Shown piece by piece: positions 2,767 through 24,074 of a stretch of 39,574 bases of DNA (positions are counted from its first letter, which is position 1; every line of letters starts with the position of its first letter). A model generated the notes under the pieces. The model did not search any database. It worked only from the letters and a program-made list of their open reading frames with translations, and was not told where the DNA came from. The stretch comes from an uncultured Candidatus Saccharibacteria bacterium (GTDB lineage Bacteria; Patescibacteriota; Minisyncoccia; Phycocordibacterales; UBA9973), in contig CAZRUN010000001.1 in the NCBI GenBank assembly GCA_964603415.1, forward strand, positions 1 to 39,574, written 5' to 3'. The translations under genes were made by a program, and so were the position numbers.

Positions 2767-3192
2767 ATGAAACGTACCTCCAGACACCATGTCGTGCCCA
2801 TTTCGATCGGTGGTTGGGACTGTGAGCAAAACATCATATTCCTAACCAATGAAGAGCATGTAAAACTACATCAAATAATGAACATACCGTACGATTCAAT
2901 CAGGCTTTTTAGAAAAAGAACCAATCATATCCTATTCGTAAATGAATACTATGTGAGAGAGCTTGCCCTAGTGCAAGAAATCTTTTTCAAGAACCTTGAT
3001 AAAATCGACCCGTTCGTTATAGAACTCATCGCTAATTCACTACATCAACTGGTGCTCAAGGCTGTAAACGAGTACCAGATCAGCAGATTCAGTATCATAG
3101 ACCGCTTTGATACACCACTTCAAAAGGCACGCTATATGATTAAGTCATACCATGCCGTGCTCTTGATTGCAGTGCTTAGAAAAACACGCTAG
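2767..3192 (+). CDS. HNH endonuclease
   Basis: HHVVPISIGGWDCEQNIIFLTNEEHVKLH matches the HH..P...GG...N...L...H..LH pattern of HNH nucleases. Confidence 0.8.
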   Translation: MKRTSRHHVVPISIGGWDCEQNIIFLTNEEHVKLHQIMNIPYDSIRLFRKRTNHILFVNEYYVRELALVQEIFFKNLDKIDPFVIELIANSLHQLVLKAVNEYQISRFSIIDRFDTPLQKARYMIKSYHAVLLIAVLRKTR

Positions 3193-10781: not shown

Positions 10782-10829
10782 AATATACCACTTGCATTAT
10801 TGTAACGCAAGCGGTATATCTGTGGATAA
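10782..10829 (-). promoter_or_regulatory. Leftward promoter with an overlapping palindromic operator and an upstream DnaA box
   Basis: On the minus strand: -35 TTGCGT (10805-10810), a 17-nt spacer, and TGGTATATT (10782-10790). A 21-bp imperfect palindrome CTTGCATTATTGTAACGCAAG (10791-10811) covers the -35 element and spacer. TTATCCACA lies at 10821-10829. Confidence 0.6.
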
Positions 10830-15083: not shown

Positions 15084-15110
15084 TAAAAAAAGCCGACGGG
15101 CTTTTTTTTG
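15084..15110 (+). terminator. Rho-independent terminator
   Basis: AAAAAAAGCC-GACG-GGCTTTTTTTT. Confidence 0.8.
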
Positions 15111-15139
15111 TTGTTGTAATTTTATTTTTATGGTATAAT
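15111..15139 (+). promoter_or_regulatory. Sigma70-type promoter with extended -10 (TTGTTG, 17 nt, TGGTATAAT); near-leaderless terS mRNA
   Basis: The -10 element ends at 15139 and the ATG is at 15149, so the predicted 5' UTR is about 3 nt. Confidence 0.65.
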
Positions 15140-20568: not shown

Positions 20569-21003
20569 ATGGAAAATACAGAATATTCAAAAAAGATTTA
20601 TACAACAGTAAACGGACTAGCGAAGAAGTACTTGGAATCAATTACTCCTATCATTGAGAACGGACTATTCGACCCATCTGTATCAGATGAGGATCGTAAA
20701 GCACAGGAAGAAAAGATGGTTGACTTTCAACTAGAGTTCATTAAAACTATTGCAGAAACAGATTTGCAATGGACTAAAGTAGAACTTATCTTCTTACAGC
20801 TTGAATCATTGTTGCAACAGTCAAAGACATTCATTAAGAACACAGTATCATTGTGGGATAATGAAATTTCATCACGAAACTACGGTGTAAAAACAGCTGA
20901 AGGTAAATTCCGAAAGGAAGAAGTACCAGTTTCTGTTATCATCAAGGCACTTGAAGACGCTCGTAAAGCAACAGGAGACAATAAAGAAGATTTCTATAAT
21001 TAA
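20569..21003 (+). CDS. Hypothetical structural-module protein (144 aa)
   Basis: The ATG lies 1 nt after the upstream stop. Confidence 0.65.
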   Translation: MENTEYSKKIYTTVNGLAKKYLESITPIIENGLFDPSVSDEDRKAQEEKMVDFQLEFIKTIAETDLQWTKVELIFLQLESLLQQSKTFIKNTVSLWDNEISSRNYGVKTAEGKFRKEEVPVSVIIKALEDARKATGDNKEDFYN

Positions 21004-21008
21004 AAAAC

Positions 21009-21038
21009 TTGCATTGATTTGTATTATTATGGTATAAT
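21009..21038 (+). promoter_or_regulatory. Strong sigma70-type promoter (TTGCAT, 18 nt, TGGTATAAT)
   Basis: The -35 element is at 21009-21014 and the extended -10 at 21030-21038. It is a near-copy of the 16957-16987 promoter. Confidence 0.7.
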
Positions 21039-21044
21039 GTACAA

Positions 21045-21242
21045 GTAAAAGGTAGGTGCTATGATTTAGGTAACATTAGTTTCGATTAGTGTTACCAATA
21101 ATCCTTGCAGAAACCACGAGGAGGATACAATTAAGAGTCTGGAGAGACTGGGTTAACAGCCCCTAGCGAAAAACACTCTACCTAAAACACGAGTCGGCAG
21201 ACTTCTAAAAAATGCTAGGTACGCACGAAAGTGTGTTTTTTA
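21045..21242 (+). ncRNA. Candidate ~190-nt structured RNA or regulatory leader ending in an intrinsic terminator
   Basis: Closing helix: AGGTAGGTG (21050-21058) pairs with CACTCTACCT (21174-21183). A 12-bp hairpin with a TTCG loop spans 21069-21096. AGTCT-GGAG-AGACT lies at 21136-21149. The terminator ACGCAC-GAAA-GTGTGT plus a T-run spans 21221-21242. No credible ORF is present. Confidence 0.45.
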
Positions 21243-21274
21243 TTTATTACTTTTAATTTAATCCTAAATTATTT

Positions 21275-21676
21275 ATGGCAACACAAGCAAATTATCGCAA
21301 TAACGGAGCTATTTCTAAAAAGAAAGCTTCTACTGCATACAAAGTTGGTGACTTCCTTACTACTGATAGTAACGGATTCTTGGTACCAGCAGGAGGTGTA
21401 GCAGGTAAACTTGTTGGAATTTCTAACGAAGAAATTACAGCATCTTCATCTGACTACGCTTCTACACGAGATCTTAATATCTCAGGAGGTGGTTCACAAG
21501 TTGAATTCGAAATTCCAGTTATTACCGGAACAGCAACTCAAACATTAGTTGGAGAATTAGTAGATATCGATGCATCTGACTCACGAGGAGTTGATGTTAC
21601 AGCTTCTACTAACGACCAGATCCTTGTAACTCGAATCATCGATTCAGCTACAATCAAAGGAAAAATCGTTCTTTAA
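21275..21676 (+). CDS. Putative head decoration protein (DUF2190-like)
   Basis: 133-aa Gly/Val/Thr-rich protein immediately upstream of the major capsid gene. The pattern (GDFLTTDSNGFLVPAGG...GKLVGIS) resembles capsid cement proteins. Confidence 0.5.
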   Translation: MATQANYRNNGAISKKKASTAYKVGDFLTTDSNGFLVPAGGVAGKLVGISNEEITASSSDYASTRDLNISGGGSQVEFEIPVITGTATQTLVGELVDIDASDSRGVDVTASTNDQILVTRIIDSATIKGKIVL

Positions 21677-21707
21677 TCATTACTCATTAACTTAAATATA
21701 AACATAT

Positions 21708-22727
21708 ATGAACAGCTCAACATACGGAAATACCAATACATTTCCAATGTACGCAAATAATATCAACCAGTTCATGGAAGATTATTTGTCACGTTACACT
21801 CCAGAATCTGCAGGACTTTTCATTTCACAAAACGTGGGAGAAAATGCTGAAGATGTAAAACTTGTTCGTGAACAGGACATGGAGTTCTACGCACAGGACA
21901 AACCACAAGGAACAGATGCACAGCGTCTTGCACTTGGAACTGGTTACTTCAAAGAAATCAAAGCTTACCGAATCGGTGCTCAATTCAACTTGACATACGA
22001 AATGCGTGTAGCACCACGATTCTCTCTTGGAGAAGCAGTATCAGAATTTGCTAAATCAGTACCATCTCGTATGGAACTTGATCGTCAACACTTCCTATCA
22101 TTCTCAAACGCAACTACTTATGTAAACATGAGTGGACGAACTGTAGATGTAGCAGGAGGAGACGGACTAGCAATCATTTCAGCTACTCACCCATTGGCTC
22201 ACTCAGCAATCACATGGTCTAACTTGGTTCCAGGTAACCCATCATTGTCTGTAACAGCTCTTGAATCAGCTGAAACACTTGGAGTTACTAACGTTTTGAA
22301 CAACTACGGAAACCCAGTACCTTACAAATTCACTCACTTGATTGTTCAAAAGCAATCACCTGAAACATGCCGTATTGCTACTGAAATCCTACGTTCATCT
22401 TCATTGGTTACACAAGCTAACCCAGGAGTTGTTAACACATTCAGTACAAAGTACAACTTGATGGAACTTTCACAAGTTGCAACTAACGCTATGGGTGTTA
22501 CTGACAACAGTAAATCTAAATGGTGGTTCTTAGCAGCACTTGGACAAGGATCACAACGATTCCGAGCTTACGAATTAGTATGGGAAGCACCTCACATGAA
22601 TGCTGCACCAGCTGGATCTAACAACGGAATTGATGCTTACAACGATGACATGACTTTCGGTATGCGTGCTCGATACGGACACGGAGTACTTTCAGCTCGT
22701 GGTATCATTGGTTCATTTGCTTCTTAA
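21708..22727 (+). CDS. Major capsid protein (by position and size)
   Basis: 339-aa ORF after the scaffold and decoration genes. It is followed by a strong RNA hairpin, which suggests a discrete abundant transcript end. Confidence 0.65.
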   Translation: MNSSTYGNTNTFPMYANNINQFMEDYLSRYTPESAGLFISQNVGENAEDVKLVREQDMEFYAQDKPQGTDAQRLALGTGYFKEIKAYRIGAQFNLTYEMRVAPRFSLGEAVSEFAKSVPSRMELDRQHFLSFSNATTYVNMSGRTVDVAGGDGLAIISATHPLAHSAITWSNLVPGNPSLSVTALESAETLGVTNVLNNYGNPVPYKFTHLIVQKQSPETCRIATEILRSSSLVTQANPGVVNTFSTKYNLMELSQVATNAMGVTDNSKSKWWFLAALGQGSQRFRAYELVWEAPHMNAAPAGSNNGIDAYNDDMTFGMRARYGHGVLSARGIIGSFAS

Positions 22728-22737
22728 TTATCAATAT

Positions 22738-22805
22738 AAGCCCATCGGGGGCTTATAGGGGCGAAAGCTTGTATTATGGTTTCCAAGCTATCCCCTACAA
22801 GCCCC
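22738..22805 (+). promoter_or_regulatory. Compound GC-rich stem-loop after the capsid gene (no U-tract)
   Basis: GGGGCTTATAGGGG (22748-22761) pairs with CCCCTACAAGCCCC (22792-22805). An inner helix pairs AGCTTG with CAAGCT. An alternative short hairpin is AAGCCC-ATCG-GGGCTT (22738-22754). Confidence 0.5.
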
Positions 22806-22820
22806 TGATGTAACACTACT

Positions 22821-23141
22821 ATGTCAATACAATACACACGTGGTCCATTGTCTTTTGAACCTGCATTATTTGATGCAAGTCTCAACGGTCAAGGGCTTAT
22901 CACTGAATGTCAAAAAAGTACAACTGGAGCACCTGCAGCTACTGCTGGGAAGTTTATTCCAGGAGCACTTGTTACAGCTAGTAACTCAGTGATCTGGCAG
23001 AACACAGGAACTACAGCTTCACCTGTTTGGACAACAAACAGTACAGGAGCTGGAGCAACAGGTCCTACTGGAGCAACTGGAGCAACTGGAGCAACTGGTA
23101 CTACTGGAGCTACAGGTCCTACAGGTCCTACAGGAGCTTAA
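22821..23141 (+). CDS. Collagen-like (G-x-T repeat, BclA-like) protein, 106 aa
   Basis: The C-terminus reads GAGATGPTGATGATGATGTTGATGPTGPTGA, which contains nine consecutive G-x-T triplets, preceded by a 75-aa globular region. Confidence 0.8.
   Translation: MSIQYTRGPLSFEPALFDASLNGQGLITECQKSTTGAPAATAGKFIPGALVTASNSVIWQNTGTTASPVWTTNSTGAGATGPTGATGATGATGTTGATGPTGPTGA
23046..23138 (+). repeat. 9-nt periodic tandem repeat encoding the G-x-T triplets
   Basis: ACTGGAGCA occurs three times in tandem, followed by ACAGGTCCT twice. All copies are in frame. Confidence 0.85.
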
Positions 23142-23201
23142 TTGAACTCTTTTACACTCACTTTATGGTGGGTGGATAAAGGGTTTAACCCCTTTAAAAC
23201 C

Positions 23202-24074
23202 ATGAAACTATCTTTATCAATGATTGTTAAAAATGAAGAAAACCATCTTACTACAGCACTTGAATCAGTTTCAGGTATTCATGAGATAGTTATTTGTGAC
23301 ACAGGATCAACTGATAACACAGTAGAACTTGCTAAAAACTACACAGATAAAGTATTTACTGATTACACATGGAATGATGATTTTGCAGAAGCTAGAAACC
23401 ATGCACTTGCAAAGTGTACTGGGGACTGGATTCTTATTGTAGACGCTGATGAGCGACTTGCTACACCTATTGAGGAAGTAATCAAGTACGTTACTGAGGC
23501 GGATCAGAAAGGGTTAAAAACAATTAGCTGTAAAGTGATTTCAGAGAAATGGAATCAGATGCACAGACAACCACGACTCTTTAAAAAATGCGATGAAGTA
23601 TTTTGGAAAGGTGCGATACACAACCATCTAAGCGTTGATGAGCATAACTACCAAGATATCGAAGTTTATTATGGATATTCAGATGCACACCAAAAAGACC
23701 CTGATCGAGCATTGAGAATACTTACCAAAGTAGTTAATGAAAAACCGGATCGTGCTAGAGAGAAATACTATTTAGCACGAGAATACTGGTATCGACACGA
23801 CTATACAACAGCTTTGCATTGGTACGAGAAGTATATTCAAGTATCAAAGTACCCGGCAGAACTTGCAGATGCTTACCTTATGTCAGCTAGATGCTTACAC
23901 GCACTAGGAAATATGGAAGAATCAAAGACACAATGTCTTAATGCAATTAAAGTGAACACGAATTTTAAGGAGGCTATCTTATTTTTAGCAAGCCTATCAG
24001 GACCTAAGAATAAGAAACGATGGACTGACTTTGCAGAGGGAGCAACCAATGAAGATGTCTTATTTATTAGATAG
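23202..24074 (+). CDS. Family-2 (GT-A) glycosyltransferase with a TPR-like C-terminal half
   Basis: Motifs LSLSMIVKNEE, ICDTGSTDNT and ILIVDADERL (DxD). The C-terminal region has TPR-like repeats (YYLAREYWYRHDYTTALHWYEKYI...). The ATG at 23202 is preferred over the TTG at 23142. Confidence 0.85.
   Translation: MKLSLSMIVKNEENHLTTALESVSGIHEIVICDTGSTDNTVELAKNYTDKVFTDYTWNDDFAEARNHALAKCTGDWILIVDADERLATPIEEVIKYVTEADQKGLKTISCKVISEKWNQMHRQPRLFKKCDEVFWKGAIHNHLSVDEHNYQDIEVYYGYSDAHQKDPDRALRILTKVVNEKPDRAREKYYLAREYWYRHDYTTALHWYEKYIQVSKYPAELADAYLMSARCLHALGNMEESKTQCLNAIKVNTNFKEAILFLASLSGPKNKKRWTDFAEGATNEDVLFIR

Follow-up and report, generated by a model that had tools for sequence, protein, structure and literature searches.

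In the stretch of DNA analysed here (39,574 nucleotides, positions 1 to 39,574 of contig CAZRUN010000001.1, assembly GCA_964603415.1, from an uncultured Candidatus Saccharibacteria bacterium; hereafter the window), the genes for a cement-like protein and for the major capsid protein of a phage are preceded by a structured RNA that is a new family, missed by current annotation, even if its function proves to be other than that proposed below. At its core are two predicted H-type pseudoknots in tandem, each with an A-rich third loop; a short helix (H) connects them and lies directly against an intrinsic terminator. The RNA may be the transcribed 5' leader and transcription attenuator of the cement and major capsid operon, a reading to which we give slightly less than an even chance. 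An attenuation or antitermination role, already put forward by an earlier sequence-only reading of the window, is the best available account: the layout is real and conserved, and no separate promoter is recognisable for the cement and capsid genes. Relatives share a conserved promoter, a covarying structure, a terminator, a fixed position and orientation, and one copy per genome.

The promoter-RNA-terminator unit and its covarying fold

The locus (21009-22727) runs from an extended -10 promoter through about 200 nt without a conserved open reading frame (ORF) to an intrinsic terminator, the cement-like gene and the major capsid gene. The RNA occupies the intergenic spacer 21004-21274, which separates a 144-aa ORF with no assigned function (20569-21003) from the 133-aa cement-like gene. 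The parts of the unit are the following.

21009..21014, plus strand: -35-like hexamer TTGCAT (CTTGCA in relatives, which carry an ACTTGCA/TTGACA-like motif at equal distance)
21030..21038, plus strand: extended -10 element TGGTATAAT, recognised by motif enrichment, context and conservation
21045..21242, plus strand: predicted RNA of about 198 nt, with a putative start about 7 nt past the -10 and its end at the U-tract, as placed from the promoter and terminator positions
21063..21103, plus strand: irregular 5' hairpin (Pa and Pb), Pa pairing GAUU (21063-66) with AAUC (21100-03)
21069-80 with 21085-96, plus strand: Pb of the 5' hairpin, 12 bp, loop UUCG, with an internal loop (UA / AAU) between Pa and Pb
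21104..21120, plus strand: small hairpin Pc, CUUG (21104-07) with CGAG (21117-20), its 3' side entering a purine-rich GGAGG
21125..21132, plus strand: unpaired conserved AUACAAUU, immediately 5' of pseudoknot 1
21136..21179, plus strand: pseudoknot 1 (PK1), stem 1 (S1) AGUCU (21136-40) with AGACU (21145-49), stem 2 (S2a) from the loop GGAG (21141-44) with CUCU (21176-79)
21163-75, plus strand: A-rich loop 3 of PK1, CUAGCGAAAAACA
21180..21220, plus strand: helix H, ACCUA (21180-84) with UAGGU (21216-20), enclosing pseudoknot 2
21192..21215, plus strand: pseudoknot 2 (PK2), stem 1 AGUC (21192-95) with GACU (21200-03), stem 2 (S2b) from the loop GCA (21197-99) with UGC (21213-15)
21204-12, plus strand: A-rich loop 3 of PK2, UCUAAAAAA
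21221..21242, plus strand: weak intrinsic terminator, ACGCAC-GAAA-GUGUGU (21221-21236) and UUUUUU (21237-42), about -5 to -7 kcal/mol
21243..21274, plus strand: AT-rich spacer of 32-33 nt between U-tract and ATG, without conserved promoter or Shine-Dalgarno sequence

Viral, metagenome, genome and assembly collections were searched for relatives by way of the capsid protein, and 24 of the approximately 185 capsid homologues had their loci inspected for the RNA (individual loci are given by L numbers). The unit was found at the same place in 22 loci, whose capsid proteins are 55-83% identical, and wherever a locus extends sufficiently upstream, a spacer of about 200-400 nt carries a TATAAT-type -10, a similar RNA and a terminator, the homologous RNAs measuring 133-246 nt. 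The RNA is always flanked by a head gene upstream and the cement gene downstream, with its orientation unchanged, and it keeps adjoining the cement gene even where ORFs have been inserted upstream (an HNH ORF in L026, small Cys-rich ORFs in L036 and L037, NUMOD3 in L056). The claim that the region holds no credible ORF agrees with these relatives, since 9 of the 21 homologous spacers lack any ATG ORF of at least 8 codons and the positions differ in the rest.

A simple sigma-70 scan omits the promoter because its -35 agrees with TTGACA at just 3 of 6 positions. The combination of TTGCAT, an 18-nt spacer and TGGTATAAT, singled out by the sequence-only reading, is borne out by the motif's enrichment and by conservation of the -10, as relatives have a TATAAT-type -10, mostly with a TG extension, at the equivalent place. 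In the window TGNTATAAT occurs 10 times against 2.8 expected, a count that none of 100 shuffles reached, and the six exact copies of TGGTATAAT are all intergenic and all on the plus strand. At five of them (2740, 15131, 16979, 24092 and 33108) an ATG follows 10-46 nt downstream; behind the copy at 21030 no gene begins for about 235 nt. Another -10-like sequence, TGCTATGAT at 21057-65, which bears on the Q-binding element and sigma-dependent promoter-proximal pause of a lambda-type unit, is not kept in relatives.

MAFFT alone misaligned helix H, so that an N-padded hand alignment and a covariance-model alignment were used. The hand alignment comprises 20 sequences, each piece being checked against the real sequence and N serving as gap placeholder; standard pairs fill 99.5% of its 387 cells, 18 of the 20 pairs show compensatory changes, and slid controls were at most 47% paired. 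Covariance model R1 was built from four sequences with nested helices only and then used to align all hits, which avoids circularity. In this second alignment 96.3% of cells are paired and 18 of 19 pairs have compensatory changes, and the pseudoknot stems that lie outside the model are still paired (S2a 96.7%, S2b 86.3%), with compensatory changes in three of three pairs each. RNAalifold, applied to an unsupervised alignment of eight full-length RNAs, predicted the 5' hairpin, Pc, helix H and stem 1 of PK2. G-U pairs are present in several helices, and the structure therefore belongs to the plus-strand RNA and not to DNA. Shuffle controls overstate significance here because the compared sequences are kin. 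The RNA structure itself is under selection, as the compensatory changes in both alignments indicate. The RNA of the window (21045-21250) is more stable than its shuffles (fold z = -2.9).

Both small hairpins of the core that had been proposed earlier (21136-21149 and 21191-21203) were confirmed with covariation, and the loops of both pair with the 3-4 bases that follow a conserved A-rich, UCGAAAAA-like stretch. In PK1, S1 is 100% and S2 is 96.7-100% paired, each of the three S2 pairs having undergone compensatory change; every pair of helix H covaries, and RNAalifold predicts H independently; and the second stem of PK2, which like that of PK1 is 100% paired in the hand alignment, reads GCA/UGC, GCG/CGC, GUG/CAC, ACG/CGU, GCC/GGC or GGU/ACC among relatives. 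The two modules have a stem 1 of 4-6 bp (GAGUC/GACU type), a loop 1 of 0-5 nt, a stem 2 of 3-4 bp and an A-rich loop 3 of 9-13 nt. Loop 2 is 0-1 nt long in 19 of 20 sequences for PK1 (2 nt in L027) and in all 20 for PK2. Helix H measures 3-5 bp across sequences, its 5' strand beginning 0-4 nt after the 3' strand of PK1 stem 2. The 9-bp closing helix of the sequence-only reading (21050-58 with 21174-83) was not recovered: it is 56.1% paired in eight relatives against 51.2% when shuffled, RNAalifold does not predict it, and it overlaps PK1 stem 2 and helix H. It appears in the single-sequence fold because the folding program cannot model pseudoknots. Of the structure proposed earlier, three hairpins and the terminator are confirmed; its closing helix was wrong, and the two pseudoknots had been missed.

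In PK1 of the window, positions 21150-62 form an optional 13-nt mini-hairpin between stem 1 and the A-rich loop, with the conserved sequence GSGUUMACAGCSC followed by CUNG. It is found at the same insertion point in either pseudoknot (PK1 in L051, L054, L031, L059 and L040; PK2 in L001, L040, L026 and L035) and looks like a movable sub-module.

Upstream of the core, the hairpin at 21069-21096, also proposed before, is sustained by compensatory changes in 8 of the 10 pairs predicted by RNAalifold and, in a separate count, by pairing in 92.9% of cells in relatives against 74% in shuffled sequences. It is absent in L026 and L035, and therefore the minimal unit is the double pseudoknot with the terminator. 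Pc, likewise predicted by RNAalifold, shows conservation and one-sided changes only, with no compensatory ones, and in type-B relatives a longer Pa takes its place. No pairing partner or trans target was found for AUACAAUU, which is present in L101 too, and its complement is not enriched.

Model R1 gives 22 hits with E values of 1e-20 to 3e-5, one per locus; that of the window (21129-21219, 44.5 bits) is the single copy in 39.6 kb. The model misses L101 and L060, whose capsid proteins are 41% identical. Parsed by hand, both show the order PK1-H(PK2)-terminator with all stems complementary and with different loop sequences, although these are single-sequence parses of lower weight. This suggests that architecture, rather than the sequence of a ligand pocket, is kept across distance. 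When viral contigs were scanned for the pseudoknot pattern, the only matches were the three known relatives and chance ones that the model rejected. None of the 4227 models of Rfam 15 matched anywhere in the window at gathering score; with E up to 10, positions 20900-21400 gave only sub-threshold noise, and 12 homologous loci gave no consistent match. A tRNA/tmRNA search found none.

Proposed read-through and termination, and the competing explanations

As the leader and attenuator of the capsid operon, the RNA would work as follows. Transcription would start at the strong extended -10 promoter, which would serve the cement and capsid genes as well, and the resulting RNA of about 200 nt would fold in the order of its synthesis, the protective 5' hairpin coming before PK1, and PK1 before PK2 enclosed by helix H. 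The 3' strand of H would run directly into the 5' strand of the weak terminator or, in most relatives, overlap it by 1-3 nt. Once folded, the double pseudoknot would hold H closed, the base of the terminator stem would be occupied or sterically hindered, and the polymerase would read through into the capsid genes; were the fold absent or delayed, the terminator would form and a short RNA would be released. The ratio of read-through to termination would then set capsid expression, with terminated transcripts accumulating as short RNA, and this ratio may be an intrinsic property of the RNA or may be adjusted by a factor (a phage protein, a host protein or a small ligand) that would bind the near-identical modules.

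The terminator at 21221-21242 starts immediately 3' of helix H and is one of just two convincing plus-strand terminators in the structural module, the other being at 15085. Its placement with a U-tract before the capsid genes, as noted in the sequence-only reading, recurs in every relative (21 of 21), with stems of 5-11 bp, 5-8 U and energies of -2.6 to -15.7 kcal/mol, most of them -5 to -9. In 13 of the 21 sequences the start of the terminator stem is offset by -3 to +1 nt relative to the end of H, and there the 3' strand of H (H3) shares as many as three purines with the terminator helix. From U-tract to ATG, relatives have 27-50 nt of AT-rich sequence, as read by eye. Upstream transcription in L035 would be stopped by a 13-bp terminator 9 nt short of the -10 of the RNA, and in L101 a similar G+C-rich hairpin with a U-tract, read from the sequence, lies just 5' of the RNA promoter; the capsid genes of these two loci are therefore hardly transcribable except through the RNA. 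Selection on the structure, the fixed cis position, weak terminators beside H and these upstream terminators all speak for a leader and attenuator, as do the similar parse of the relatives at 41% identity and a conserved hairpin that closes the 3' end of the cement-capsid cassette.

Other observations weigh against it. Promoter use, termination and read-through are each deduced from sequence, and the covariation rests in part on a hand-fitted alignment of related sequences. A conserved spacer of 5-6 nt, (A/U)AGAU, separates H from the terminator stem in 8 of the 21 sequences, and the argument from overlap therefore fails for those eight. No classical antiterminator pairing was found for the 5' domain when duplex energies with its own and with other partners were compared. 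In L060 the terminator stem may be formed by helix H itself, and folding would then act in the opposite direction. A complete promoter-to-terminator unit also fits a stand-alone small RNA gene, weak promoters may exist in the AT-rich spacer, and the promoter rules applied may not be those of the host. Among candidate pairings that were tried and rejected, one between the 5' hairpin and the terminator, prompted by their apparent likeness within each RNA, gave no signal (p = 0.42 and 0.29), and neither did pairing of the 5' domain with the 3' strand of S2a plus the 5' strand of H, with H3 or with the A-rich loops (p = 0.46-0.94).

The strongest alternative, and the main rival, is an abundant trans-acting phage RNA that stands alone, its modules with GAGUC/GACU stems and UCGAAAAA loops sequestering a protein as a decoy; the protein sequestered could be a nuclease, a ToxN-like type III toxin cutting at A-rich sites, or one of the host's RNA-binding proteins. 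We regard this as rather unlikely, though a serious contender. The transcription unit is complete, with terminator and U-tract in all relatives; the two modules nearly duplicate each other and have loop and stem positions that do not vary, as would suit a dimeric or repeated partner; and type III antitoxins are likewise pseudoknot RNAs arranged as promoter, RNA, terminator and gene. On the other hand, Tandem Repeats Finder (TRF) detects no near-identical tandem repeats, the neighbouring proteins match no toxin or defence family, and the capsid genes of L035 and L101 would be left without a visible promoter. The fixed cis position over deep divergence, together with loops that have changed at 41% identity, also fits a cis role better than host mimicry. 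The specific form of an antitoxin mimic was rejected for want of tandem repeats and of a toxin. CsrA-type GGA loops and CRISPR-repeat mimicry, considered by eye, were dropped, since the stems differ from phage to phage and the bases of the loops are engaged in downstream pairing.

A module for stabilising or processing the mRNA, in which the 5' hairpin and compact pseudoknots would block 5'-end-dependent nucleases, the long hairpin would guard or define the 3' end, the cement-capsid message would be long-lived as a result and the terminator would be merely leaky, is unlikely and is compatible with attenuation. It would account for conserved structures at both ends of the cement-capsid cassette and for a long structured leader special to the most highly expressed genes, where other window promoters give leaderless messages or very short leaders. 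It leaves unexplained, however, why a hairpin with a U-tract is kept between stabiliser and genes in all relatives, it offers no reason for two covarying pseudoknots over a simple hairpin, and L026 and L035 lack the 5' hairpin. A late switch of the lambda type, with a Q- or N-type protein modifying RNA polymerase at or near the promoter and the short RNA as a by-product, matches the layout (promoter, about 200 nt, terminator, late genes) and is nonetheless very improbable: compensatory change conserves the fold of the RNA, which is hence no by-product, and such a unit occurs only once in the window. The earlier statement that no Q-like antiterminator is recognisable holds for the approximately 30 window ORFs, small ones left aside, that were scanned with Pfam or PHROGs and contain no Q or N family. 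An N-like protein that bound the pseudoknots would, moreover, belong to the attenuator proposal itself.

We consider it highly improbable that the conserved feature is an element of the DNA, such as a replication origin or packaging site, or a leader-peptide attenuator based on a micro-ORF. Two points can be cited in favour, the presence of the micro-ORF in the window and a weak match to the plasmid replication region RNA ARRPOF that, at 17.7 bits, stays below the gathering score of 127. The G-U pairs and the confinement of A-rich loops and U-tracts to one strand point to RNA, however, and the small terminase gene is about 6 kb away. The 14-codon micro-ORF (21212-21256), from which peptide-dependent attenuation had been thought conceivable, lacks its start in 19 of 21 relatives and has a counterpart only in L045, its ATG existing because stem S2b reads UGC in both the window and L045; with the short ORF not conserved, that mechanism is rejected. 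A riboswitch, also raised before, is possible, yet no known class matches and the loop sequences differ in both relatives at 41% identity. Returning to attenuation, its most far-reaching form would make the tandem pseudoknot domain a new class of self-contained RNA device that gates capsid transcription, acting like the put RNAs of phage HK022, so that its own polymerase would pass the terminator, or as a two-site sensor of a ligand or protein, and widespread in uncultivated phages without Q- or N-type proteins; this form is conceivable and, at present, doubtful.

Capsid genes, other sequence signals and host

Downstream of the RNA lie the following features.

21275..21676, plus strand: cement/decoration-like gene, 133 aa, the first gene 3' of the RNA (the cement label is weak)
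21708..22727, plus strand: major capsid protein gene, 339 aa, assigned by PF25209 labels on relatives and fold matches of a structure model
22743..22811, plus strand: long hairpin of about 30 bp without a U-tract, in the 93-nt spacer right after the capsid stop codon (-39 kcal/mol, z = -5.2)

The cement label derives from a homologue in L051 with a weak precomputed match to PF22758 (Phage_cement) and from a weak match to phrog_673. Precomputed labels assign several relatives of the capsid protein to PF25209 (Phage_capsid_4), yet when scanned directly against Pfam neither the 339-aa protein nor 16 homologues gave a match. The top PDB matches of its AlphaFold model are all HK97-fold capsid proteins, in a fold search that used a model of low confidence (pLDDT 46.6). 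All 185 homologues of this protein are metagenomic. The small and large terminase genes of the window are clear assignments. A hairpin of like shape and other sequence follows the capsid gene in 10 relatives; that of the window is a candidate RNase III site or 3' stabiliser, which suggests that the 3' end of a two-gene cement-capsid message is also defined or protected there. Within the head module, a collagen-like ORF with Gly-X-Y repeats (22821-23141) precedes one (23142-24074) for a family 2 glycosyltransferase that has TPR repeats, and the pair hints at a glycosylated capsid fibre.

Several side observations concern the promoters. The copies of TGGTATAAT at 15131 and 16979 have an ATG 9-10 nt past the -10, which implies leaderless or nearly leaderless mRNAs. 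At 2740-2755, between divergent ORFs, TGGTATAAT on the plus strand overlaps TGATATAAT on the minus strand back to back, likely a divergent promoter pair at a switch between gene blocks. The exact DnaA-box consensus TTATCCACA is found beside promoters, in the window at 1662, 1681 and 2731 (plus strand) and at 10821 (minus strand), one copy adjoining the TGGTATAAT at 2740; in several relatives (L035, L036, L037, L040, L001 and L101) a copy lies roughly 10-50 nt 5' of the RNA promoter. With one mismatch allowed, the total number of DnaA boxes is not above chance. Inserts immediately 5' of the RNA promoter, namely homing-endonuclease-like genes (HNH in L026 at about 2900-3110, NUMOD3 in L056 at 862-1347) and the small Cys-rich ORF of L036/L037, make this spacer appear an insertion hot spot.

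The signals that bear on the host conflict. No cultured phage matched the window DNA or the capsid protein, cultured relatives came up solely for the large terminase, at no more than 42% identity and all of them phages that infect Bacteroidota, one relative locus sits in a metagenome-assembled genome (MAG) of Bacteroidetes, and no Shine-Dalgarno sequence was found for genes in the window. Against these stands the depletion of the Bacteroidota -7 promoter motif TAnnTTTG (32 occurrences in the window against 46.8 expected). Promoters of the Bacteroidota type were rejected on this ground, those of the window looking like the sigma-70 extended -10 type.

Comparison with known RNA systems

The likeness to the PR'-6S RNA-tR' region of phage lambda, drawn in the sequence-only reading, holds for the positional layout: in both cases the late or structural genes come after a promoter, about 200 nt of transcript and an intrinsic terminator, and termination would yield a short RNA. 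It does not extend further. Control in lambda resides in the Q protein acting at the promoter, and to our knowledge a conserved fold is not needed in lambda 6S RNA; in the present phage the fold of the RNA is conserved and appears to be under selection, and no gene for a Q-like protein was found in the scanned ORFs.

Pseudoknot riboswitches such as preQ1-I, fluoride and ZTP similarly combine a small H-type pseudoknot with a 3' strand beside or overlapping a terminator, and, by analogy with preQ1-I, the minor groove of stem 1 would accommodate the A-rich loop. Unlike these riboswitches, the phage RNA has tandem modules bridged by a helix, and its loops are not kept in distant relatives. No PreQ1 match was obtained at E up to 10, the loop 2 of 0-1 nt leaves no preQ1-like pocket, and the scanned ORFs include no queuosine or 7-deazaguanine genes or related metabolic genes. 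The frameshift pseudoknots of luteoviruses of the BWYV type have a stem 1 of 5 bp, a loop 1 of 1-3 nt, a stem 2 of 3-4 bp and an A-rich loop of 7-10 nt that crosses stem 1. These dimensions are similar to those found here, a likeness in fold and not in role, as the phage RNA lies outside any reading frame.

The antitoxins of type III toxin-antitoxin systems are pseudoknot RNAs in a promoter-RNA-terminator-gene order (PMC3401426). The phage RNA resembles ToxI, CptI and TenpI in being a pseudoknot RNA followed by a terminator and a gene, and in its A-rich single strands. It differs from them in that TRF finds no tandem repeats in 20900-21400 at a minimum score of 30, the modules sharing architecture and short motifs, and in that PADLOC, Pfam and PHROG searches reveal no toxin of the ToxN/AbiQ type, the downstream genes being those of the cement-like and capsid proteins.

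The put element, whose RNA binds its own polymerase and renders it resistant to terminators, occurs in two copies per genome, downstream of the two early promoters, a feature not shared by the phage RNA, of which model R1 finds one copy per window or locus. It is established that HK022 put, Bacillus subtilis EAR and Tn916 canT, RNA elements located between a promoter and a terminator, permit read-through (PMC11658703). The phage RNA is like them a structured RNA just past the promoter and before a terminator, and, as these elements do (PMC11658703), it would act in cis on the polymerase that transcribes it. Neither sequence nor model matched these elements in Rfam scans that cover described, curated families, and they act over many kilobases and several terminators, where the phage RNA has one terminator that follows immediately.

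In conclusion, the features of an intrinsic terminator and of H-type pseudoknots are present. The fold recalls preQ1-I and luteovirus pseudoknots, the layout recalls lambda and the pseudoknot riboswitches with a terminator platform, and the repeated pseudoknots recall type III antitoxins; at least one defining feature was sought and is lacking for preQ1-I, for put-type RNAs and for the antitoxins, and for lambda no Q or N family was found in the ORFs scanned. We provisionally class the RNA as a new family, with a putative function of the attenuator or antiterminator kind. It is placed before the most highly expressed phage genes, and the 185 metagenomic capsid homologues suggest that the lineage is large. 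Covariation predicts, for each helix, mutations that break and mutations that restore it, and the mechanism is therefore directly testable; synthetic gene control may also find a small candidate part in the double pseudoknot with its weak terminator. RNA-only or RNA-centred control of late-gene transcription has very few known examples (put, EAR and canT), and the phage RNA, if the proposed role is true, would be a compact addition to them, well defined by sequence comparison.

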